DNA of 64,000 nt from Candidatus Hydrothermarchaeota archaeon (GCA_015521615.1 WANW01000051.1:7918-71917), one strand, 5' to 3'. Shown: positions 5,690 through 63,939, numbered from the stretch's first letter. The notes: a model not told the origin generated them from the letters alone. A program made the numbers and translations.

Positions 5690-6232
5690 CTAAAATTCTC
5701 TAAAGGCATTGCCTCCAGCACCACAAACGGGACACCGCTCTGGAGCATCCCCTATAACCGTATGCCCGCACACCGAGCAGATGTTTACCTTCTCTATCTC
5801 CAGGTCCTTCCCTTCCTCTGCCAGCTTTTTCGCCTCAGAGTAGAGCTCCGCGTGGATCTTTTCCGCCTCTATCGCGTAGCGTATACTCCTCTTCGCCTTC
5901 TCCTCCCCCTGAAGCTCTGCCACAGCGTTGTACGCGGGGTACATCTCCTCCACCTCGAAGGTCTCCCCCTCTATGGCAGAGTTCAGATTCTGAGGGCTCT
6001 TGCCAAGCATACCCAGTGCCTTGAAGTGATTTGTGGCATGCACCTGCTCCGCATATGCTATTGCCCTGAAGAGCTTTGCGATGTTGGGAAGCCCATCCCT
6101 CTCTGCCTGCTTTGCGAAGATTAAATACTTCATATGTGCCTGGCTCTCGCCAGCAAAAGCTGCCTTGAGGTTCTCTTCCGTCATCTTCCTCATCTCAACA
6201 CCTCCTGAATTAACTAATTGCTCATCTGCCAA
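5690..6232 (-). CDS. rbr: Rubrerythrin
   Basis: 180 aa. A ferritin-like diiron domain (ExxH repeats) is followed by a C-terminal rubredoxin-like CxxC...CxxC domain. Confidence 0.9.
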   Translation of the reverse strand: MADEQLVNSGGVEMRKMTEENLKAAFAGESQAHMKYLIFAKQAERDGLPNIAKLFRAIAYAEQVHATNHFKALGMLGKSPQNLNSAIEGETFEVEEMYPAYNAVAELQGEEKAKRSIRYAIEAEKIHAELYSEAKKLAEEGKDLEIEKVNICSVCGHTVIGDAPERCPVCGAGGNAFREF

Positions 6233-6275
6233 TTAATAACTTTCTGTTGTTACATCTCGTAACCAGCATTTAGAA

Positions 6276-40834: not shown

Positions 40835-41311
40835 TCATTTCATTATAACAGTCGCCCAGTTACGGGCAACTGCAAGGATATTGCTGGGAGAATTGTCCAC
40901 AATCTCTCTCACTGTGCTCCCGGTTATTTCAGGATGTCTGGAGTTTATCCCCAGAACAAGAAGGTCCACATCCTCCTCCTTTGCGGTCTTTACTATTTCC
41001 TCAGCTGGCAGGCCAACTCTTATAATCTCCTTTGCATTAACACCACTGTTTTTAAGGCAGAGTTTTGCCGCCTCAATTGCCCTCTTCCCTCTGTCATCCA
41101 GCAGATTTTTTATGTCCTTCCCCTCCTCAAGAAGGGACTCTATAGTACCCTTGAACTGAGCCTCCCCGAGGAGGTCATGGTGAAAGATATCACCAATATT
41201 TGCCACATAAATATACTGAAGCTCTGCATCAAATTTCCTGGCCAGTTTTACCCCAGTAAGTAACGCTTTGATTGATACATTACTCCCATCAAAAGCAACA
41301 AGCACCCTCAT
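40835..41311 (-). CDS. Universal stress protein (UspA family)
   Basis: The sequence pattern VLVAFDGS...DLLVLG...GSTVREIV is present. Confidence 0.8.
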   Translation of the reverse strand: MRVLVAFDGSNVSIKALLTGVKLARKFDAELQYIYVANIGDIFHHDLLGEAQFKGTIESLLEEGKDIKNLLDDRGKRAIEAAKLCLKNSGVNAKEIIRVGLPAEEIVKTAKEEDVDLLVLGINSRHPEITGSTVREIVDNSPSNILAVARNWATVIMK

Positions 41312-41434
41312 AACATTGTTAACTTATAACATTCTATATTTATATCTTTCGAATTACCCCCATAAAACACTTACATTATTAACAAAAACTTTTATATATT
41401 TACTACAAAAAATGGTAGTGGCGGAGGAGACTTT

Positions 41435-54312: not shown

Positions 54313-54828
54313 TCACTCTTTGCGCTGCTCTGGGAATTCACGTGAGCGGCGTCTTTTACCACGCCTTCTGAAAATGTCCCTCAGCTCTGTGTGGATAAAG
54401 CCCTTCTCCTCAACGTCGGCACGCTCTTCTTTTACTGTGAGCTTTATCACAACCACCAGTGCGAGGATAAAGAAGGTTGCCATTGCAAGGGTTAGAGGCT
54501 GTATCTCCAGGGCGCCTGTAAGTATGACCTCTCTGAGCACAGCCACCAGTGCGATCTCTGCCATAAAGCTCACCGCAACCCGGTGCTCCTTGAGGTAGAC
54601 GATGAGCATGCGGTAGGTCTCAACGAGTATCATAATGTACAGAATTTCAGAGACAACACGCTTGAACTCAAAAGCATGGGAAATCTCAAAGATTATCCCC
54701 AAAAGCACCTTTATGCTTACATAGAAAACAATTACAGAAAGAGCTATGATTATCAAATCCTGGATTGTCTCCAGGGTCTTTCTGAACACGTCGTGCACCT
54801 TTCGGTAGAGTATCTGCTCCTCTGTCAT
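54313..54828 (-). CDS. PsiE-like (phosphate-starvation-inducible E family) membrane protein
   Basis: 171 aa with four TM helices and a basic C-terminal tail. Confidence 0.45.
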   Translation of the reverse strand: MTEEQILYRKVHDVFRKTLETIQDLIIIALSVIVFYVSIKVLLGIIFEISHAFEFKRVVSEILYIMILVETYRMLIVYLKEHRVAVSFMAEIALVAVLREVILTGALEIQPLTLAMATFFILALVVVIKLTVKEERADVEEKGFIHTELRDIFRRRGKRRRSREFPEQRKE

Positions 54829-55973
54829 TTCCTCCCACCGAGCTTTGCCCTGGTCTTCATAACCTCGCCGCCGCGTATGAAGGTTATCTCTATCTCCTGG
54901 CCCACCTTCTTCCTGGAGATTATATCAACCAGCTTCTCCATGGAGTCTACCTTTTCCCCATCTATAGCTATGATTATGTCGCCACCTATTGTCAGGACAT
55001 AGCCCCTGTAGATTATCTGCACCTCTCCCGCATGAAGCCCCGCTTTGTCAGCAGGACTCCCGGGCACGACCTCAACAATCATGGCTCCCTCCTTTACGGG
55101 AAGATTGAGCACTCTTGCGAGCTCCTCTGTGACGGTAATCCCACTGATCCCCAGCCAGGGCCTGCGCTCAATCTCACGGTCCTCTTTTATCATCTCCTGC
55201 ATTATAGCCCTTGCCCTGTTTATGGGTATGGCGAAGCCTATTCCAATACTTCCACCGCTGGTGGTGAGTATGGCGGTGTTTATGCCGATGACCTCACCTG
55301 CCAGGTTGACAAGTGGGCCACCGCTGTTCCCGGGATTGATTGAGGCATCCGTCTGTATGAGCCCGTGCATTATGTAGCCCTTCTCGCTCTTTATACTCCT
55401 GTTAAGGGAGCTGATTATCCCAAGCGTCGCGGTACGGTCAAGGCCAAAGGGGTTGCCAATTGCTATTACAAACTCACCCACACGGAGATTTGATGAATCT
55501 CCCAGAGGCGCCACCGGCAGGTCTTCGGGTGGGTTGAGGATTTTTATCACCGCTATGTCATTGGCAGGGTCACTGCCCACAAGCTCCGCCTCGTACTTCT
55601 CACCATTGCTCAGCGTTACTTCAATCTGCTCGGCATTCTCAATAACGTGGTTGTTGGTGAGAACATAACCATCACGGGAGACCACTATGCCAGAGCCTGT
55701 ACCGCGCTGGGGTATAACCTCAAAGAAGAACCCCCTCTTCAGTACAGTGGAGGTTATGTGTACCACGCTCGGCGACACCCTCTGATATGCACGGTTGACC
55801 ACCTCATCGATTGAGCCGGTGACGTTAATAATCTCATGCCTTTCCACCTTGACCTCCTCATGCTTTGGCACAGATACTGCTGCAAAGTAGCCTCCCGCCG
55901 CGCCAGCAACCAGGGCAACAAGAAGGAATGATATAAATTTAATCGCCTTTTTCGAACCCAATTTTCCCACCAC
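54825..55973 (-). CDS. HtrA/DegP-family trypsin-like serine protease with a C-terminal PDZ domain
   Basis: A GNSGGPL catalytic motif and a PDZ domain are present. There is an N-terminal TM anchor. Confidence 0.85.
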   Translation of the reverse strand: MVGKLGSKKAIKFISFLLVALVAGAAGGYFAAVSVPKHEEVKVERHEIINVTGSIDEVVNRAYQRVSPSVVHITSTVLKRGFFFEVIPQRGTGSGIVVSRDGYVLTNNHVIENAEQIEVTLSNGEKYEAELVGSDPANDIAVIKILNPPEDLPVAPLGDSSNLRVGEFVIAIGNPFGLDRTATLGIISSLNRSIKSEKGYIMHGLIQTDASINPGNSGGPLVNLAGEVIGINTAILTTSGGSIGIGFAIPINRARAIMQEMIKEDREIERRPWLGISGITVTEELARVLNLPVKEGAMIVEVVPGSPADKAGLHAGEVQIIYRGYVLTIGGDIIIAIDGEKVDSMEKLVDIISRKKVGQEIEITFIRGGEVMKTRAKLGGRK

Positions 55974-56060
55974 CTGAGCGAGAGCTGGCCTTTACTTGTT
56001 TAACTTTTTGTTCTACTATAAAATCCTATTGGACGTATCATCATAACATGGTTACAATTT

Positions 56061-56083
56061 TTTAGTAACATTATGTTACTAAA
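56061..56083. promoter_or_regulatory. Palindrome TTTAGTAACATTATGTTACTAAA matching the Pyrococcus Phr heat-shock-regulator consensus as I recall it (TTTA..T..C.....G..A..TAAA). It sits upstream of the tandem hsp20 genes.
   Basis: Read directly from the sequence. It has perfect dyad symmetry. A TATA-like CTATAAAAT lies about 35 nt upstream. Confidence 0.55.
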
Positions 56084-56141
56084 ATTTTTGACAGTGTGAG
56101 GGCGCATATATTAGTATAGTAACAAAAGGTGACTAAAGGAG

Positions 56142-56657
56142 GTGATGCGCATGTGGAGGAGAAGGAGGATATTTGATGATTTCTTCAGGGAGCTTGACGA
56201 AATAGACAGGCTCTTTGACAGGATGTTTGAATCAATGCGCTCCTGGCGCGGCATTGAGGGCATAGAAGAGCAGCCCCTCTACTGGGGATTTTCAGTGCGC
56301 CTGGGTCCTGAAGGCGTGCCCGAGATTCAGACCTTTGGCAACGTCGAAGCCGCACCGACGCTGCGCACAGGTGTTCGCGAACCTTATGTGGAGACAATGG
56401 TTGACGAGAAGAACGGCGAGCTTGTGGTAACCGCCGAGCTTCCAGGTGTTACCAAGGAGGACATAAAGATCAACGCTACGGAGAACAGTGTTGAGATCGT
56501 CGCAGAGCGTGATGACAGGAAGTACCGCAAAGTTGTTGCCCTCGACGCTGAGGTAGAGCCCAGCTCTGCAAAGGCGAGGTACAACAACGGTGTGCTCGAG
56601 ATAAAGTTCAAGCTCAAGTCACCGCCCAAGAAGGGCGTTAACATAAAAGTTGAATAA
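56142..56657 (+). CDS. hsp20: Small heat-shock protein (Hsp20/alpha-crystallin family)
   Basis: An alpha-crystallin domain and a C-terminal I-x-I/V-like VNIKVE motif are present. An AGGAGGTGA RBS precedes it. Confidence 0.85.
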   Translation: MMRMWRRRRIFDDFFRELDEIDRLFDRMFESMRSWRGIEGIEEQPLYWGFSVRLGPEGVPEIQTFGNVEAAPTLRTGVREPYVETMVDEKNGELVVTAELPGVTKEDIKINATENSVEIVAERDDRKYRKVVALDAEVEPSSAKARYNNGVLEIKFKLKSPPKKGVNIKVE

Positions 56658-56670
56658 GGAGGTGGTGGGA

Positions 56671-57111
56671 ATGATGCCAGCTATATGGGAGGAGCTTCGC
56701 AGGCTTGAGGATAGAATGAATCAGCTCTTCCGCGAGCTGTGGAGCAGCTTTCCGCGCACAGAGGAGCGTTTCCCCAGCTTTGCAGGGGTGCGCAGCCCCT
56801 TCTGCGACGTGCAGGAGACTGATAAGGAGATAATTATAACAGCAGAGCTTCCAGGGGTTGACAAGGAGGACATAAAGATCAACGCCACTGAGCACGAGGT
56901 GGAGATAGAGGCAGAGGTAAAGAGGGAGGAGGAAGAGAAGAAAGAGGGATACTTCCGAAGTGAGAGGCAGTACTCAAAGTTCTACCGCTGCCTTGCTCTG
57001 CCCGCAGAGGTGGACCCGAGCAAGGCCAAGGCAACCTACAAGAACGGAGTGCTTGAGCTTCGCCTGCCAAAGGTGAAAACAGAGACGAAAACCAGCATAA
57101 AAGTTGAGTAA
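56671..57111 (+). CDS. hsp20: Small heat-shock protein (Hsp20 family), tandem copy
   Basis: The ATG at 56671 follows AGGAGGTGGTGGGA. The track uses a TTG at 56650. The sequence is alpha-crystallin-like. Confidence 0.85.
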   Translation: MMPAIWEELRRLEDRMNQLFRELWSSFPRTEERFPSFAGVRSPFCDVQETDKEIIITAELPGVDKEDIKINATEHEVEIEAEVKREEEEKKEGYFRSERQYSKFYRCLALPAEVDPSKAKATYKNGVLELRLPKVKTETKTSIKVE

Positions 57112-57113
57112 CT

Positions 57114-57890
57114 CTATCTCCTTTTTTCTTTCCACTGTTTGAGCATACTTTCGTGCCGGGGGCAGAGTTCGGGCTGTGAAAACTGTGCTTCTATGAGTTC
57201 TTCCTGCCAGTGAGCATTATAGAGTCTGCACCGCTTATCTTCACAGAAAGCTTCGCCAAAGAGCTGGTAAAAGAGGGCCTGAAGAGCGTAACCTTTAATC
57301 ACATCTCCCATGCGCACGTCCCCATAATCTAAAATTTTCTGCCCGAATTTCTGCTTGAGCTGAGCTTCTGCCAGAGGATCCTCTCCGAGGAGGCGGCGCT
57401 GGAGATAAAACTCCCTCGGCTTTGCCGGTGCTTCCACAATGCCTGAGGTGGAGATTATCGCCGGATAGCCCAGGACAATAGCTCGAAGATGGTAGCGTCT
57501 GTCCCCCTCATCAAAGGTCGCAATCATGCGCGAGGTTATTACCAGGTGGAGCTTCTCAAGGCTGACCTCCTGCCTCGGGAGGAGGCTGCGCATGTAACTC
57601 TGCAGGGCTATCCCATCGTACAGCACGCCCCCGGCCTTTGCTTTGCTGGAGAGCACGCGCTGTTCATACTTAACCTCGCCATACAGGGGCTCTTCCTGCG
57701 CTATTTTCCTGGTAGGGTCGAAGATGCGCATTCCTGCGAGAGATTTCGCCACGTCATCCAGGCTATGAGCAAATCTTGAGAAGAAGCCTCCCCTTACCTC
57801 CACTCTCGCACCCTTCTCCTTCAGGTAGTGGGCCAGCTCCTGGAAGTTGACTGCTTCTCCACCCTGTTCGTCGTAGATAAAAATCTTCAT
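57114..57890 (-). CDS. Conserved hypothetical protein with a C-terminal Cys cluster (CEDKRCRLYNAHW...CPRHE)
   Basis: 258 aa from MKIFIYDEQ. I could not assign a family. The track start at 57986 would overlap thi4. Confidence 0.4.
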   Translation of the reverse strand: MKIFIYDEQGGEAVNFQELAHYLKEKGARVEVRGGFFSRFAHSLDDVAKSLAGMRIFDPTRKIAQEEPLYGEVKYEQRVLSSKAKAGGVLYDGIALQSYMRSLLPRQEVSLEKLHLVITSRMIATFDEGDRRYHLRAIVLGYPAIISTSGIVEAPAKPREFYLQRRLLGEDPLAEAQLKQKFGQKILDYGDVRMGDVIKGYALQALFYQLFGEAFCEDKRCRLYNAHWQEELIEAQFSQPELCPRHESMLKQWKEKRR

Positions 57891-57891
57891 C

Positions 57892-58683
57892 TTACTCTTT
57901 TTCAAGCATCTCCAGCGCAACCTCTGCGGCACGCTTGCCAGAGAGGAGCATAGCCCCGAAGGTCGGGCCCATGCGTGGCAAACCATACACGGTGGAAACC
58001 GCCATACCCGCGACGATTAATCCGGGGTGTGCCTCGCCGGTGTGCTCCACTACTGCGTCTTCACTGCGCTCCACCCACATGGCACCGTAGCCGCGCACCT
58101 TCATAAGCCCCCTTCTCACGAGGGCACTGACCACCTCTGCATCGTGACCCGTGGCGTCTATGACCACCTTAGCCTGAAGCGACACCGGATCAACGCAGGT
58201 TATTTCGCGGGGAAGAGCTGAAATGGGTGTCCAGTTTATGACCACCCCCGAAACGCGATTGCCCTCGCGCAATACCACATCATCAACTTTGGTCATGTTG
58301 AGAATCTTTGCACCTGCATCACAGGCGGCGGCGATAAGCTTTGAGCATGCATGTGGGCCGTCTGTAACATAGAGCCCCTTCACGTACTCCTGGTAGGGCA
58401 CGCCTATCTCATCCAGCACCTTTTCGCCGGGGGCACGCACTGTAACCTTGTTCATCAGATAACCGCCTATCCAGAAACCCCCACCCAGGTAGTTGTTCCT
58501 CTCTATTATGAGCGTTTTTACACCCTTTGAGGCAAGCTCCTTGGCTGCGGTTAAGCCTGCAGGACCACCTCCTACTATTATAACATCACTTTCAGCATAC
58601 TCGCTCAGCATTCTCGAAAACTCACCAACTATCGCCTGAGTAACATCCTTTTCCTCTACCTTCTCGAAGAGCATGGCTATCAA
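57892..58683 (-). CDS. thi4: Thiazole biosynthesis enzyme Thi4 (archaeal type)
   Basis: An FAD-binding [13 protein letters not shown] motif is present and the rest is Thi4-like. Confidence 0.85.
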
Positions 58684-58733
58684 CCTCTGAAGCTTTCCTT
58701 AGCTTAACCTGCACAGCAATATTAAAAGAAGTC

Positions 58734-58751
58734 AGGGGTCTTGCGACCCCT
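58734..58751 (-). terminator. Hairpin AGGGGTC-ttgc-GACCCCT followed by a T-rich tract, 5 nt after the tRNA-iMet 3' end
   Basis: A 7-bp perfect stem is followed on the minus strand by TTCTTTTAAT. Confidence 0.35.
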
Positions 58752-58755
58752 TGTA

Positions 58756-58831
58756 TAGCGGGGGGTCGATTTGAACGACCGCTCTCCGGGTTATGAGCCC
58801 GGCGGGATGGACCTGGCTACCCCACCCCGCT
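58756..58831 (-). tRNA. Initiator tRNA-Met (anticodon CAT)
   Basis: Reverse complement is AGCGGGGTGGGGTAGCCAGGTCCATCCCGCCGGGCTCATAACCCGGAGAGCGGTCGTTCAAATCGACCCCCCGCTA. The A1:U72 pair and three G-C pairs closing the anticodon stem are initiator features. Confidence 0.85.
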
Positions 58832-58911
58832 ATGGTGCCAGTGCTATGATATGGGGTAGAGATTACCATCATTATCCAAATATATAATCTTTTCCCTCGA
58901 ATGTGCCCGCC

Positions 58912-59904
58912 TCAGTGGGATATCATGCTGCGCAGGGGTATGTAGTACGCATACTCCTGGTAGGAAATCCCTGAGTTCCAGTGCCCTGTGAGCTTTGCCA
59001 AGATTACAAAGGCAAAGAATGTGCCTAGCAGCAGGGCAGCGTAGGTGGTCTTCCGCAGGGATAGAAATCCCGCTACCGACATGGAAAGAGCCCCTTTAGG
59101 ACAGGTATCCACGCAGGTGAAGCAGGCATTGCATTCAGGGCTGCGAACCACCTGTTTTTCATGAACCCTTATGCTGCTGTGGCATGCACGCGTGCATAGT
59201 TTGCAGCTGTTGCACTTCTCAACATCCCTCCTGACGCCCGTTAAGCCAATAAAACCCAGCACGCCGAGAAGTGCACCGTAGGGGCACAGATATCTGCACC
59301 AGAAGTTTTTAAACACCAGGGAGAGGGCAATCATCGCCGAAATGAAAGCTACTGTGTTCCTGCCCGGATGTAGCCAGAAATCCAGCAGCTTGGCGTCCAC
59401 CACCTTGTAGTACGGGGACTGGAGAAAAGCTGCCACCGCCTCTGCACTCATGTCCACGATAATAAGCTTAACAAAGAAGAGGAGAATGAGGTACTTTACC
59501 AGCCTGAGTGGTATGTCCACCGCAGGAGGAAGCCTGAAATTTCTTCCCAGTATCCTGGCCCCGGCTTTTCCCAGCGCCTCGGAGAGCGTACCCACAGGGC
59601 AAATCCAGCCACAAAAGCCACGGCGGAAGAATAGGGAAACAGTAAGAATCGCGAGGAAAATCACAAGCGCAGCTGGATGCACAACATCTATGGTGCGGTT
59701 AACCATGAGGTGCTTAAATGCGACGAGCGCTCCCACAGGCATAAAGGCGTCCACGCTTTCAGGTCTGGGGACATAGGGAGTTGCGCCTCCAGTATCAAAA
59801 TGTCTGACGAAGAGGTAGAGGCGGTACCATATGTAGATGGAGAATATGACAAAGAAGGCCTGGACGTAGACTCTCAGCCGTCCTTCATTTAATTTTACTT
59901 GCAT
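58912..59904 (-). CDS. Membrane-bound polyferredoxin-like 4Fe-4S protein (NapH/MauN-like)
   Basis: CGWICPVG, CRYLCPYG, CNSCKLCTRAC and CNACFTCVDTCP motifs are present. The ATG at 59904 (MQVKL) is the likely start. Confidence 0.7.
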   Translation of the reverse strand: MQVKLNEGRLRVYVQAFFVIFSIYIWYRLYLFVRHFDTGGATPYVPRPESVDAFMPVGALVAFKHLMVNRTIDVVHPAALVIFLAILTVSLFFRRGFCGWICPVGTLSEALGKAGARILGRNFRLPPAVDIPLRLVKYLILLFFVKLIIVDMSAEAVAAFLQSPYYKVVDAKLLDFWLHPGRNTVAFISAMIALSLVFKNFWCRYLCPYGALLGVLGFIGLTGVRRDVEKCNSCKLCTRACHSSIRVHEKQVVRSPECNACFTCVDTCPKGALSMSVAGFLSLRKTTYAALLLGTFFAFVILAKLTGHWNSGISYQEYAYYIPLRSMISH

Positions 59905-59995
59905 CGCATATAAGTTATTTTTATTAGTTCTTCTCCCTTTTCTCGAACATGTTCGCACAAAAAAGCTTTACAACGTTCTTTTCACAGCGCTGGGA

Positions 59996-60301
59996 ATGCT
60001 CGAAGTTCTGGTAAACGGAGACACCCATGAATACCTGTACTGGAGCACTGCCGAGGTCATAGCTCGTGCCGTCGTGGTGGAGCGCGAAGAAGAGGCAGAG
60101 ATAAAGCTGATAAACGTTGCCCGTCATCGCAGAGGCGAGGGGATAGGCAGCCTAATATTAGAGAAAATTATCTCAGACTTCGCCCATAAGAACATAACCA
60201 CCTGGACCTTTAACGGAAGAATCTCCTGGTATGAAAGAAATGGATTTGAGGTTGCTGAAGAGCGCGCATCTCTGCTGAAAATGGTCAGAAAAAATCAGTA
60301 G
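59996..60301 (+). CDS. GNAT-family N-acetyltransferase (short)
   Basis: The acetyl-CoA motif is RRGEGIGSLILEKI. Confidence 0.55.
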   Translation: MLEVLVNGDTHEYLYWSTAEVIARAVVVEREEEAEIKLINVARHRRGEGIGSLILEKIISDFAHKNITTWTFNGRISWYERNGFEVAEERASLLKMVRKNQ

Positions 60302-60831
60302 TAGAGAAGCTCCCTGAGTTCCTCAATGGCAACCTCTTTCTTTATCTCCTCGCGAATCTCCCGCTGGAGGTACTCCACGACGCGCTTGGCCTCATTTATC
60401 TTCTCGTGCTCCTTCATAAGCTCATGGTAAAGCTCCCTGAGCCTCTCGACACGCTCCCACCCACGCATACGAGAGGTTTCATCAAGGCGATGCACAACCT
60501 CTGCAAGCTTCGGGAAGGATGTGAGCACCTCCTCGTTAATCTCCGGGAGAAGCGTCTCGATGTAGAAGTGGTGGGGTGATATCTTCACCTCAATAAGGAT
60601 ATCTTCGCTGATGTGGTAGTATTTCCTGGGCCTGCCCTTATCTATCTTCTCCAGTCTGGTCTCCAGTATACCTGCCTGGCGCATAAGCTCAAGATGCTCA
60701 ATAACCGCCTTCTGCCCAATATTCAGCGTCTGAGAGAGCTCACTGACATAGCATGGTCTCTCAGATAGCAGCTGGAGAATCTCTCTCCGGGTTTCATTTC
60801 CCAGCATATTCAGGAGAATCTCCAGATTCAT
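60295..60831 (-). CDS. phr: Phr/HSR1-type archaeal heat-shock transcription regulator (ArsR-like wHTH)
   Basis: The N-terminus is MNLEILLNMLGNETRREILQLLSERPCYVSELSQTL...KGRPRKYY, with a C-terminal coiled coil. The ATG at 60831 is the likely start. The track start is 60903. Confidence 0.75.
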   Translation of the reverse strand: MNLEILLNMLGNETRREILQLLSERPCYVSELSQTLNIGQKAVIEHLELMRQAGILETRLEKIDKGRPRKYYHISEDILIEVKISPHHFYIETLLPEINEEVLTSFPKLAEVVHRLDETSRMRGWERVERLRELYHELMKEHEKINEAKRVVEYLQREIREEIKKEVAIEELRELLYY

Positions 60832-60865
60832 GCCTATTAAAGCGGGCGTTAACAATGTAAAAATT

Positions 60866-60888
60866 TTTATTAACCAAAGGTAAGAAAA
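60866..60888. promoter_or_regulatory. Near-consensus Phr site TTTATTAACCAAAGGTAAGAAAA in the phr/hsp20 divergent intergenic region
   Basis: It fits TTTA.T..C.....G..A. with one mismatch in the final TAAA. Confidence 0.4.
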
Positions 60889-60942
60889 AGTTTCTTTCCG
60901 CAAGATATTTATCTCTAAACTATAAAATGTAGATATAGGGAG

Positions 60943-61380
60943 GTGGTAAGGATGTGGAGAGACCCATTTGAAGAGCTTAGAAACCTAGAGAGGAGAATGA
61001 ATAGACTTTTTGAGGAGCTCCTGGGGGAGTACAGACCGGCGCTACGCGCTCCCGAGGTGCGGCAGCCCTTTGCGGACATCATTGATACGGGAAAGGAGAT
61101 TAAAGTGACAGTTGAGCTTCCAGGAGTAGATAAGGAGAACATTCAGATTAATGCCACAGAAAATATGCTTGAGATTAGAGCTGAGGTAAAGCGCGAAGAA
61201 GAGGAAAAGCGGGGCGACTATCTGCGAAAGGAAAGGAGCTACCGCATGTTTCAGCGAAGCTTCTCACTTCCAGCAGAGGTGGACCCGAGCAGGGCAAAGG
61301 CCACATACAAAAATGGCATCCTTGAAATAACCCTGCCCAAGGTTAAAGAGGAGAAAAAGAGAAGCATAAAGGTGGAGTAA
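60943..61380 (+). CDS. hsp20: Small heat-shock protein (Hsp20 family), third copy
   Basis: 145 aa and alpha-crystallin-like. It is transcribed divergently from phr. Confidence 0.85.
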   Translation: MVRMWRDPFEELRNLERRMNRLFEELLGEYRPALRAPEVRQPFADIIDTGKEIKVTVELPGVDKENIQINATENMLEIRAEVKREEEEKRGDYLRKERSYRMFQRSFSLPAEVDPSRAKATYKNGILEITLPKVKEEKKRSIKVE

Positions 61381-61421
61381 TCTCCACCTTTTAATATTTC
61401 TTACTAAAGGTAAGGAAATTA

Positions 61422-61444
61422 TTTAGTAACAAAAAGTTAGTAAA
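61422..61444. promoter_or_regulatory. Phr-consensus site TTTAGTAACAAAAAGTTAGTAAA upstream of the grx-like/cdc48 genes
   Basis: It fits TTTA.T..C.....G..A.TAAA exactly. An imperfect palindrome TTTCTTACTAAAGGTAAGGAAA lies at 61397-61418. Confidence 0.5.
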
Positions 61445-61457
61445 AAGGAGGTATAGA

Positions 61458-61718
61458 ATGGAGGAAGGCATACTCATCGAACTCTTCACATCACCCACGT
61501 GTCCCTACTGTCCGCGCGCCAAGGAGGTTGCAGAGAGGATAGTCAGAAGGATGCCCGGAGTGCTTCTCATAGAGAGAGACGTTTCCCAGCCAGAGAATGC
61601 AGAGATAGCGCGGAGCTATGGGATTCAGGGCGTACCGGCTATGGTCATCAATGGCAGATATAAGATTCTGGGGGTGCCAAGAGAGGAGCAACTTCTGCAC
61701 TACCTCTCCACCCTTTAA
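61458..61718 (+). CDS. Glutaredoxin/thioredoxin-like small redox protein (CPYC)
   Basis: 86 aa. It carries a CPYC active site and a Grx-like fold pattern. Confidence 0.7.
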   Translation: MEEGILIELFTSPTCPYCPRAKEVAERIVRRMPGVLLIERDVSQPENAEIARSYGIQGVPAMVINGRYKILGVPREEQLLHYLSTL

Positions 61719-61740
61719 AAATTAAAGGAGGTGGTTTTTT

Positions 61741-63939
61741 ATGACAAAGGAGATAGAACTCAAGGTTGCAGAAGCCAGGTCCAACGATGTCGGACGGGGA
61801 ATAGCCAGAATTGACCCCCGTGTTATTGAGGAGTTAGGTCTCACCTCTGGTGATGTCATCCAGATTATAGGTAAAAAGAAGACTGTGGCAATAGTCTGGC
61901 CCGGCTATCCCGAGGATGCTGGCCTGAGGATAATCCGCATTGACGGCTTCACCAGGAAGAATGCCGGTGTGGGGATAGATGATAAGGTAAAAATTCGAAA
62001 GGTTACTGCGCAGCCCGCAAATGTGGTGAAGCTTGCTCCAACTGAGCCTCTGCGCATCGTCGGTGGGGAGGCCTACCTGAGGCAGTACCTGGAGAACCGG
62101 GCAGTCTCGCGGGGAGATATGATAGAGCTCAACATAATGGGCAGGAAAATCGGCCTAGTGGTGACCAGTATACAGCCACCTGCTGATGCGGTCATAATAA
62201 ACTATGCAACACGGGTTGAGATAAGCGAGAAGCCAGCGAAGATTACAGAAACAAAGATTCCACGCGTGACCTACGAGGATATAGGCGGGCTCAAGGAGGA
62301 GATACGAAAAGTTCGCGAGATGATCGAGCTTCCGCTGAAATATCCCGAGATTTTCGAGCGTCTCGGCGTAGAGGCGCCAAAGGGTGTGCTTCTCCATGGG
62401 CCACCTGGTACTGGCAAAACGCTTCTCGCAAAGGCTGTGGCTAATGAGACCAACGCCAACTTCTACAGCATCTCCGGGCCAGAGATTATGAGCAAGTACT
62501 ATGGAGAGAGCGAGGAGAGGCTCAGGGAGATATTCAAGGAAGCTGAGGAAAACGCCCCCAGCATTATATTCATAGACGAGATAGACTCCATAGCGCCCAA
62601 GCGGGAGGAGGTGACGGGCGAGGTGGAGCGGCGCGTCGTTGCGCAGCTGCTCGCGCTGATGGACGGGCTTGAGAGCAGAGGGCAGGTCGTGGTTATAGGT
62701 GCGACGAACCGTCCGAACGCTCTCGACCCGGCGCTGCGCCGACCTGGAAGGTTCGACCGCGAGATAGAGATAGGCATCCCCGACAGAAACGCAAGAAAGG
62801 AGATACTGCTCATCCATACCCGTGGAATGCCACTGCCAGAGGATGAGGAGGAGCGCAGGCGCATAATAGAAGACTTTGCCGACAAAACCCACGGCTTCGT
62901 CGGAGCTGACTTAGAAGCTCTCTGCAAGGAGGCGGCGATGCGCTCCCTGCGCAGAATCCTGCCCGAGATAGACTTCGAGCTGGAGAGCATCCCCGCCGAG
63001 ATTCTGGACAAGATACAGGTGACCTACCAGGACTTCGAGGAGGCGTTCATGGACATCGAGCCGAGCGCAATGCGCGAAGTGCTTGTGGAAGTACCGGACG
63101 TAAAATGGGACGACATAGGCGGACTTGAGGAGGTGAAGCAGGAGCTCCGCGAGGTTGTGGAGTGGCCCCTCAAGTATCCCGAAGTGTTTGCCCACATGCG
63201 AGCTCAGCCGCCTAAGGGCATACTCCTGTACGGACCTCCCGGCACGGGCAAGACGCTGCTCGCCAAGGCGGTGGCAAACGAGAGCGAGGCCAACTTCATA
63301 AGCGTCAAAGGCCCGGAGTTCCTGAGCAAGTGGGTGGGTGAGAGCGAGAAGGCGGTGCGCGAAACCTTCCGCAAGGCACGCCAAGCGGCGCCCTGCATAG
63401 TCTTCATGGACGAGATAGATGCAATAGCACCCACGCGCGGCTCTGGCCTCGACTCCCACGTCACAGAACGCGTTGTGAGCCAGATACTCACAGAGCTCGA
63501 CGGCCTGGAGGAGCTGCGCGGGGTTGTGGTTATTGCTGCGACCAACCGCCCCGACATAATCGACCCCGCTCTGCTCCGCCCTGGCAGGTTCGACCGCCTG
63601 ATATTCATACCTCCGCCAGACAGAAAGGCGAGAGAAGAGATATTCAGGATTCACACCCGCGGCAAGCCCCTCGCTGAGGACGTGGACATAGCAAAGCTGG
63701 CGGAGATGACGGAGAACTACACAGGCGCAGATATAGCTGCGGTGTGCAACGAGGCGGTGATGCTGGCGATACGCGAGTACATAAGCGAGGGCAGGCCTCT
63801 GGACAGAGAGGTCATGAAGAAAGAGCTCAAGCTGAAGATGAAGCATTTCGAACAGGCGATGAAGAAGATAAAGCCCATCTCCAAGGAGGAGCTGGAGCAG
63901 TACCTGCGAATAGCAGAGAAGTTCAAGACGGTGGCATAA
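61741..63939 (+). CDS. cdc48: AAA+ ATPase Cdc48/VCP homolog with two AAA domains
   Basis: 732 aa. An N domain is followed by two Walker A motifs (GPPGTGKT) and SRH regions. Confidence 0.95.

Follow-up and report, generated by a model that had tools for sequence, protein, structure and literature searches.

A probable Phr/HSR1-type heat-shock regulon with paired candidate operators in a Hydrothermarchaeota archaeon

A 64,000-nt stretch of DNA from a Candidatus Hydrothermarchaeota archaeon (GCA_015521615.1, WANW01000051.1:7918-71917; referred to in its whole length as the window, with positions counted from its first letter) carries genes for a Phr/HSR1-type regulator (phr), three Hsp20 proteins (hsp20A, hsp20B and hsp20C), a small redoxin (trx) and Cdc48. 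We consider it probable that this locus is a heat-shock regulon of the Phr/HSR1 type, repressed by its ArsR-type regulator and released by heat. In the mechanism that we propose, a dimer of the regulator would bind palindromes with the core T[A/T]AC-N5-GT[A/T]A and, at normal temperature, would repress three units, namely phr itself (through the candidate operator O3), hsp20A-hsp20B (O1 and O2) and trx-cdc48 (O4' and O4); heat would then free the regulator from the DNA and transcription could begin.

Results

Palindromic sites at three promoters

The candidate operators, which as palindromes are listed without strand, differ in how closely they approach perfect symmetry. O1 (56061-56083), before the tandem hsp20A-hsp20B pair, is a perfect 9+5+9 palindrome, TTTAGTAAC-ATTAT-GTTACTAAA, and O2 (56115-56137), in the same promoter, reads TATAGTAAC-AAAAG-GTGACTAAA with two mismatches. 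O4 (61422-61444), before trx-cdc48, reads TTTAGTAAC-AAAAA-GTTAGTAAA, one asymmetric base giving it a single mismatch, and is preceded by the operator-like site O4' (61396-61418; CTTAC-TAAAG-GTAAG), which holds an exact T[AT]AC-N5-GT[AT]A core at 61401-61413. O3 (60866-60888), before phr, reads TTTATTAAC-CAAAG-GTAAGAAAA, or TTAC-CTTTG-GTTA for the core on the phr strand; it has four mismatches with respect to O1, yet it matches the family core T[AT]AC-N5-GT[AT]A exactly (60871-60883). The local operator consensus is TTTAGTAAC-N5-GTTACTAAA.

These palindromes are far beyond chance. Scanning the window for the 23-nt palindrome with up to three mismatches gave three matches against 0.02 expected and brought up O2, while the relaxed core T[AT]AC-N5-GT[AT]A occurs exactly six times against 1.4 expected, with four of the six, including O3 and O4', in the three promoters. 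We also built a 23-nt position weight matrix (PWM), trained only on exact-core sites of the more distant Hydrothermarchaeota loci (L004-L027) of the comparison set described below. It ranked O1, O4, O2 and O3 first to fourth in the window (33.5, 31.6, 26.0 and 18.4 bits), the next match scoring 13.8, whereas 30 Markov shuffles of the window gave a mean best score of 7.5 and a maximum of 15.7, and a null with intergenic composition gave 0.01 expected matches of 18 bits or more. O4' scores low (5.7 bits) with this matrix, which was built on TAAC sites.

An original prediction, made from the sequence alone, had named O1, O3 and O4 as fits to an assumed Pyrococcus Phr consensus, TTTA..T..C.....G..A..TAAA. 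The three sites are real, as judged by their excess over chance, their PWM ranks and their conservation in relatives, and the tandem hsp20 pair 4 kb away does have candidate operators of the same type, O1 and O2, before it; O2, O4' and the N3-spaced palindromes described below had been overlooked. The assumed consensus fared less well. As typed it is 25 nt long, whereas the sites are 23 nt long with TTTA/TAAA one base nearer the core; in the window it needs two mismatches and then gives four matches against 1.8 expected, which is the chance level. The calls of "perfect" and "one-mismatch" sites hold only for a 23-nt version with one base between TTTA and T, and a literal literature search for the assumed consensus returned no match.

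Conservation in relatives and in other orders

The comparison set consists of 80 loci from a reference-genome scan with an alignment of regulator homologues, labelled L001 onward and spanning ±6 kb around phr. L001-L030 are from Hydrothermarchaeota or related metagenome-assembled genomes (MAGs), and L031 onward mostly from Thermococcales and Methanobacteriales. The scan's top locus, L001, comes from the MAG 'Candidatus Pyrohabitans jungbluthii JdFR-16' (Hydrothermarchaeota), on a contig of 394 kb. Judged by amino-acid identities of 99% for the regulator, 97% for Cdc48, 87.5% for Hsp20A and 81% for HtrA, the window organism is a close relative of Ca. Pyrohabitans jungbluthii JdFR-16, with a sequence that is not identical.

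Across 27 Hydrothermarchaeota loci (202 kb) there are 27 exact TAAC-N5-GTTA cores, all in A/T-flanked, promoter-like intergenic DNA and nearly all adjoining phr. PWM matches of at least 17 bits in these loci (~200 kb) are all intergenic and upstream of phr, hsp20, trx, cdc48, thermosome or grpE genes; within genes or at unrelated promoters there were none in ~200 kb. In 18 of the 27 loci a site stands close to phr, 39-49 nt ahead of its start; in the Hydrothermarchaeota loci other than the window the distance is 39-46 nt. Because O3, at 49 nt, fits this pattern, we take it as the orthologous autoregulatory operator; in L002 and L003 the TAAC-N5-GTTA core at the corresponding position is perfect. 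O3 is thus, by its position, the predicted operator of the regulator's own gene.

Footprinting against L001-L003 showed that the operators are kept where the neighbouring spacer has diverged. O1 is kept in L001 while the htrA-proximal spacer has diverged, O2 is kept there with the same O1-O2 spacing (and L008 has a two-site hsp20A layout at 53 bp), O4 is kept in L001-L003 with changes confined to its spacer and flank, and O4' lies within a block conserved across the window and L001-L003. Two further candidates were dropped on the same comparison, namely an htrA-proximal site (55996-56018, 8.5 bits) that is not kept in L001, and an overlapping second site in the phr spacer (GTAAGAAAAAGTTTC, 60880-60894) that is not kept in L002 or L003.

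Related sites are also found outside the phylum. The Thermococcales genes whose products score 303-343 bits with the Phr model have cT[TA]AC-N5-GTTAg between the transcription factor B recognition element (BRE)/TATA box (CCGAAAAG-CTTAAAG) and their own start, and in the Methanobacteriales homologues a TATAAA box is directly preceded by TTAC-N5-GTTA, once or (often) twice. For HSR1 the literature gives the motif CTAAC-N5-GTTAG (PMC9133787), whose core, TAAC-N5-GTTA, is also that of O1 and O4; for Phr it gives the elements TTTA, TGGTAA and AAAA, grouped about the start site (PMC9133787, PMC6316755). On these sequence comparisons the operator core T[A/T]AC-N5-GT[A/T]A is common to the regulator family across lineages, which supports the original idea of a Phr operator, though the assumed consensus was out of register.

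Some relatives carry the operator module before other chaperone genes. A thermosome gene divergent from phr stands behind it in L010:4174-5826 and L014:4115-5785 (both minus strand), and grpE in L017:4912-5517, L021:1661-2296 and L025:2079-2543 (all minus strand) and also in L026. According to reviews, neither thermosome nor GrpE belongs to the Phr or the HSR1 regulon.

A distant member of the Phr family

The product of phr (60295-60828, minus strand; HTH_5/ArsR, with similarity to PDB 2P4W) has 177 amino acids. Residues 3-164 align in phmmer to residues 5-168 of 2P4W, the Phr of P. furiosus (E=4.9e-26), SurR being the next PDB sequence match (E=9e-10), and Pfam finds HTH_5 (E=8.7e-14) plus HTH_20, an N-terminal winged helix-turn-helix (wHTH) of the ArsR/SmtB type. 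An AlphaFold2 model (38 homologues, pLDDT 89) has the wHTH at residues 1-93 and a long C-terminal helix at 124-175; in Foldseek against PDB its top match is again 2P4W (157 columns, 39% identity, E=8e-12), with SurR second. The best NCBIfam family is Phr_regulator NF053602, at 112.4 bits (E=1.9e-32), where the cut-off of 320 is not reached and Thermococcus proteins score 303-343 bits; NF053602 is a narrow "exception" model, so that a score under the cut-off excludes naming at ortholog level and not membership of the family. The original call of a Phr-type regulator is therefore borne out by sequence and fold matches over the full length, and the protein is best described from its sequence and predicted fold as a distant Phr-family member, not an ortholog-level Phr. 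Its gene has no Shine-Dalgarno sequence and its transcript is probably leaderless.

The only cysteine of the regulator is residue 26 ('ERPCYVSEL'), at the position of the ArsR CVC metal site. It is kept in 31 of the 38 homologues that were found with the regulator (alignment A1), and is replaced by Tyr in Thermococcales Phr and by Arg in Methanobacteriales. One Hydrothermarchaeota MAG, CAZDSM01, has two phr paralogues (L009 and L020), which are 53% and 49% identical to the window protein, and both have paired operators 54-55 bp apart.

Promoter anatomy

An alignment with L001-L003 and with the hsp20A promoters of L008, L022, L011 and L014 brings out a conserved module, in which the operator is followed by CTAAAAT-(A/T)TTT and then by a second palindrome. 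In the window, the A/T run CTAAAATTTTTG (56079-56090, plus strand) abuts O1 and is the presumed TATA box of hsp20A-hsp20B, and the operator-TAAAAT-TTTT layout recurs at the hsp20A promoters of L001, L008, L022, L011 and L014. At their respective promoters, O1, O3 and O4' lie upstream of the A/T run, and O2, O4 and the N3 palindromes downstream. The centres of O1 and O2 are 54 bp apart and those of O4' and O4 26 bp, with GAAATTATTTAG between them; O2 and O4 are each centred 25 nt before a start codon (that of hsp20A and of trx, respectively), just ahead of the Shine-Dalgarno sequence. The upstream operator ends 1-2 nt from the A/T run, so that it would overlap the BRE if the run is the TATA box. 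Under the same assumption, each promoter would have repressor sites on both sides of the run. The transcripts of hsp20A, phr and trx would begin ~25 nt past the A/T runs, near 56110, 60836 and 61446, and that of phr, whose ATG follows the operator's GTTA at 43 nt, would have no leader. An alternative TATA box for hsp20A, 'ATATATTA' (56106-56113), is not kept in L001, L008 or L022, and the A/T run after O1 was preferred; a sigma-70 promoter scan was uninformative for an archaeon.

The second palindrome is N5-spaced at hsp20A and trx, and N3-spaced at phr and on the htrA side of O1. At phr it is TTAC-ATT-GTTA (60850-60860, minus strand), between the A/T run and the start, and has the same offset in the phr promoters of L001-3, L007, L009, L010 and L016. 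On the htrA side it is TAAC-N3-GTTA (56044-56054, minus strand), where the minus strand reads GTTAC-TAAAAAATTG-TAACCATGTTA, a module as at the phr promoters. The element T[AT]AC-N3-GTTA starts 8-15 nt (14 in most cases) after the GTTA of the N5 operator, with the A/T run in between; it is also present in L007, L009, L010, L014-L016, L019-L022, L025 and L026, and 19 of the 23 N3 elements in 266 kb stand beside an N5 core, at 14-26 bp. The N3 palindromes may serve as a further mode of operator or may belong to the promoter itself. Elsewhere in the window, a perfect TAAC-ATT-GTTA (41311-41321), without an adjoining N5 operator, overlaps the start codon of a universal-stress-protein-like gene (40835-41311, minus strand).

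Gene content and the history of the locus

Genes were called from the open reading frame listing and from Pfam, NCBIfam and PDB sequence searches, which bore out the earlier naming of three Hsp20 proteins (two in tandem), a Phr-type regulator and Cdc48. hsp20A (56151-56657, plus strand) is of the archaeal Hsp20 equivalog type (Pfam HSP20; NF041800 at 166.7 bits against a cut-off of 140) and is followed by hsp20B (56671-57111, plus strand; Pfam HSP20, E=8e-22); the gap is 13 nt, a GGAGGTG Shine-Dalgarno sequence precedes each, and the two are probably co-transcribed. hsp20C (60952-61380, plus strand) matches Pfam HSP20 with E=5e-25. The PF00011 scores of Hsp20A, Hsp20B and Hsp20C (39.3, 77.7 and 87.9 bits) all exceed the cut-off of 20.8. 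Hsp20B and Hsp20C are of a subtype other than Hsp20A; the amino-acid identities are 63% for B/C, 45% for A/B and 33% for A/C. Between hsp20B and phr lie a DUF6775 gene, thi4, a tRNA-Met gene, a Fer4 membrane protein gene and a GNAT gene, which are apparently unrelated; an Rfam scan of the whole window found three tRNAs and nothing else.

The trx gene (61458-61718, plus strand) encodes a small CPYC redoxin of the MJ0307 type, with top PDB matches to 1FO5 (MJ0307 thioredoxin, E=1e-17) and then 1NHO, and 87.9 bits on TIGR00411, just under the cut-off of 92.75. It was originally called Grx-like: a CPYC redoxin is indeed present, and its nearest matches are the small MJ0307 and MTH807 thioredoxins. 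From these matches it is a thioredoxin-fold redoxin that may be labelled either Grx or Trx. cdc48 (61741-63939, plus strand) starts 22 nt after trx, and the two are probably co-transcribed; its product is a Cdc48/VAT AAA+ ATPase (TIGR01243 at 1155 bits against a cut-off of 802.65) with CDC48_N, CDC48_2 and two AAA domains in Pfam. A second Cdc48 paralogue (~58-63% identical) directly follows cdc48 in L001:658-2802, L002:725-2881, L003:736-2880, L009, L012 and L019; the window ends 61 nt past the first cdc48, so that a tandem pair would be cut off.

The presence of the redoxin gene had been thought unusual and described as an insertion, and the comparison turns this around. trx-cdc48 stands beside phr in 9 of the 27 Hydrothermarchaeota loci and is directly divergent from phr in L009, L015 and L016/L018, with two operators 50-55 bp apart there in L009 and L015; in L012 and L019, phr is directly divergent from cdc48. 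Only the window and L001-L003 have hsp20C placed between phr and trx. In this sample of loci the thioredoxin is the conserved neighbour and hsp20C the lineage-specific insert. On the simplest reading hsp20C, an hsp20B-type duplicate, entered the locus between the two operators and need not be under repression.

The idea that all three hsp20 genes are under the operator stands as a prediction for hsp20A-hsp20B, with O1 and O2, and is weaker for hsp20C. The latter has its own BRE/TATA-like block, CCGCAAG-N-TATTTATC (60898-60915), ~40 nt before its ATG and conserved in L001-L003; we place O3 at least 50 nt upstream of this block, and its control of hsp20C is doubtful. In the hsp20C promoter region (60898-60942), the conserved block CCGCAAG-N-TATTTATCT is accompanied by an imperfect inverted repeat, TATTTATCT ... 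AGATAAATA, close ahead of the Shine-Dalgarno sequence, whose loop varies in length and sequence among the window and L001-L003. An RNA thermometer or hairpin in the 5' untranslated region before hsp20C was considered and rejected, the fold z-scores being -1.9, -0.7, -0.9 and +0.1, without a common structure. Around the stop codon of hsp20C, a hairpin (GGTGGAG-TAA-TCTCCACC, 61368-61397, plus strand) followed by TTTT is likely a terminator. It is present in the window and L001, and absent from L002 and L003, where hsp20C runs into the trx promoter.

htrA and other possible members

The gene htrA (54825-55973, minus strand; NCBIfam degP_htrA_DO, E=2e-103), for a Do/DegP-family serine protease, is divergent from hsp20A and shares the O1 spacer with it. 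The minus strand past O1 reads TAAAAAAT and then a perfect TAAC-CAT-GTTA, giving a full module of operator, A/T run and N3 palindrome on the htrA side; L001 retains this palindrome, but for one mismatch, in a spacer that has otherwise diverged. From these two genomes, O1 may serve both directions and htrA may belong to the regulon.

A rubrerythrin gene (5690-6193, minus strand) has two weak operator-like sites 40-70 nt upstream, at 6232-6262 (TAAC-TTTCT-GTTG with 13.8 bits, and TTAC-ATCTC-GTAA), a superoxide-reductase-like gene just downstream and another rubrerythrin gene upstream. We rejected this gene as a regulon member, the score being within the null range, and a scan of 80 metagenome loci encoding rubrerythrin relatives gave one operator match in 228 kb, which is no comparative support. 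For the combined proteotoxic and redox stress regulon that had originally been suggested, which stays speculative, these sites are the sole additional hint.

Discussion

Based on our results, we infer that the regulator binds these palindromes, that it represses rather than activates, and that heat is the signal. The bound repressor would flank the TATA box on both sides and exclude TFB/TBP, RNA polymerase or both. As the Thermococcales site is downstream of the TATA box and the main one is upstream here, the step that is blocked (binding of TFB/TBP or recruitment of the polymerase) may differ. A number of observations weigh against this interpretation. The regulator's score on the NCBIfam Phr model, 112 bits where 320 are required, makes it only distant kin of Phr; the main operators appear to be upstream of the A/T run, whereas the Pyrococcus site is downstream of the TATA box and over the start site, and in archaea a site upstream of the TATA box can also mean activation; no operator covers the presumed core promoter of hsp20C; and binding, repression and heat response are predictions from the sequence of an organism known from metagenome assemblies.

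A more ambitious version, to which we give only an outside chance, is that the Phr homologue of Hydrothermarchaeota has become a master stress switch of wider reach than its counterparts in Thermococcales or Archaeoglobus. Its N5 and N3 palindromes would together bracket the TATA box, its targets would extend to thermosome and grpE(-dnaK) in some members and to HtrA here, and the lone, lineage-specific Cys26, at the place of the metal-binding Cys of ArsR, together with the regulated thioredoxin would join thiol-oxidative stress to heat.

Several archaeal factors activate by recruiting TFB/TBP when bound upstream of the BRE/TATA box. The regulator could likewise activate, or have a dual role, by recruiting TFB/TBP under stress from a position immediately ahead of the A/T run. 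The positions of O1, O3 and O4' upstream of a conserved A/T run agree with this, as does a layout unlike that of Thermococcales, where the site is downstream of the TATA box. However, the operator is 1-2 nt from the A/T run and would overlap the BRE rather than lie upstream of it, a second palindrome follows downstream of the run, divergent autoregulation is typical of repressors, and the characterised homologues Phr and HSR1 are repressors (PMC9133787). We find activation improbable on this balance.

We regard as still less likely that the Phr homologue is in control and responds primarily to a thiol/redox or other proteotoxic cue, with Cys26 as the sensor and the thioredoxin resetting it, by analogy with SurR. 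The conservation of the lone Cys26 (31/38 homologues), the place of a thioredoxin gene as a conserved regulon member in the phylum and the rank of SurR as second-best relative in sequence and structure all fit such a scheme. It is harder to reconcile with a single cysteine and no CxxC pair, with targets typical of a heat-shock response (in the window Hsp20 and Cdc48, in relatives thermosome and GrpE), and with rubrerythrin sites that are within the chance range and unsupported.

That the palindromes are not bound by the adjacent regulator at all, and are promoter elements or sites of another factor at strongly expressed chaperone genes, is in our view very improbable, for although the outer TTTAG/CTAAA flanks are TATA-like, the sites are predicted as operators from their sequence and the N3 palindromes are other conserved elements in the same promoters, the same core recurs at phr-homologue promoters in three archaeal orders, including the Thermococcales, where binding of Phr to its own promoter has been published (PMC9133787, PMC6316755), the dyad symmetry and fixed N5 spacer suit a dimeric wHTH protein, and no site of at least 17 bits falls in genes or unrelated promoters in ~200 kb.

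The preferred reading, a heat-released Phr/HSR1-type repressor, describes a known system in a new phylum, and alters nothing in how such repressors are understood to work. To our knowledge, dedicated archaeal heat-shock transcription factors have been characterised only in Pyrococcus (with Thermococcus) and Archaeoglobus; here the same regulator family and operator core reach an uncultured phylum and the Methanobacteriales. Since the PWM has essentially no false matches in ~200 kb, the operator definition is good enough to predict regulons from MAGs, and the comparison hints that the Hydrothermarchaeota regulon takes in thermosome and GrpE, unlike the Phr and HSR1 regulons in reviews. The value of the locus is that of a clean and testable example rather than a surprise.

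The closest counterpart is Phr (PF1790) of Pyrococcus furiosus and Thermococcus kodakarensis, with a homologous regulator, a site in its own promoter, hsp20 and a Cdc48-type AAA+ ATPase as targets, and half-site cores T[TA]AC and GT[TA]A set 5 nt apart. There are also differences. The window protein is ~39% identical and far under the NCBIfam Phr cut-off; its gene is clustered with its targets, whereas Thermococcales phr is >6 kb from them; the outer TTTA/TAAA are one base nearer the core; and the main operator adjoins the A/T run on its upstream flank, while the Phr site is between the TATA box and the start site. The pairing of operators, the additional N3 palindrome, thioredoxin as a predicted regulon member and the single conserved cysteine of the HTH further set the window apart from Phr.

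HSR1 (AF1298) of Archaeoglobus fulgidus shares with the window the TAAC-N5-GTTA motif core of O1 and O4 (PMC9133787) and a regulator gene, autoregulated there and predicted to be so here, that is clustered with hsp20 and cdc48, a likeness of motif and gene content. The resemblance to an HSR1-Hsp20-Cdc48 operon that had been proposed thus holds for gene content and not for layout: AF1298-cdc48-hsp20 is one co-directional operon, whereas in the window the regulator is divergent, a thioredoxin precedes cdc48 and two more hsp20 genes lie 4 kb away.

SurR (PF0095), a redox-switched ArsR-type regulator of Pyrococcus and the second-best relative in sequence and fold, has the same wHTH-plus-helical architecture, but it uses a CxxC switch, serves sulfur and hydrogen metabolism and recognises another DNA motif, whereas the window protein has one cysteine and is encoded among heat-shock genes. 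The bacterial HrcA/CIRCE and HspR/HAIR systems are analogous in their working, each with a dedicated, often autoregulated repressor that is released by heat from inverted repeats in chaperone promoters; they differ in that the proteins are unrelated, the promoters are of the sigma-70 type and the activity of the bacterial repressor is coupled to chaperone titration. What is peculiar to the Hydrothermarchaeota system, set beside these, are the paired operators, the N3 palindromes, the clustering with trx-cdc48, and a possible extension to htrA here and to thermosome and grpE in relatives.

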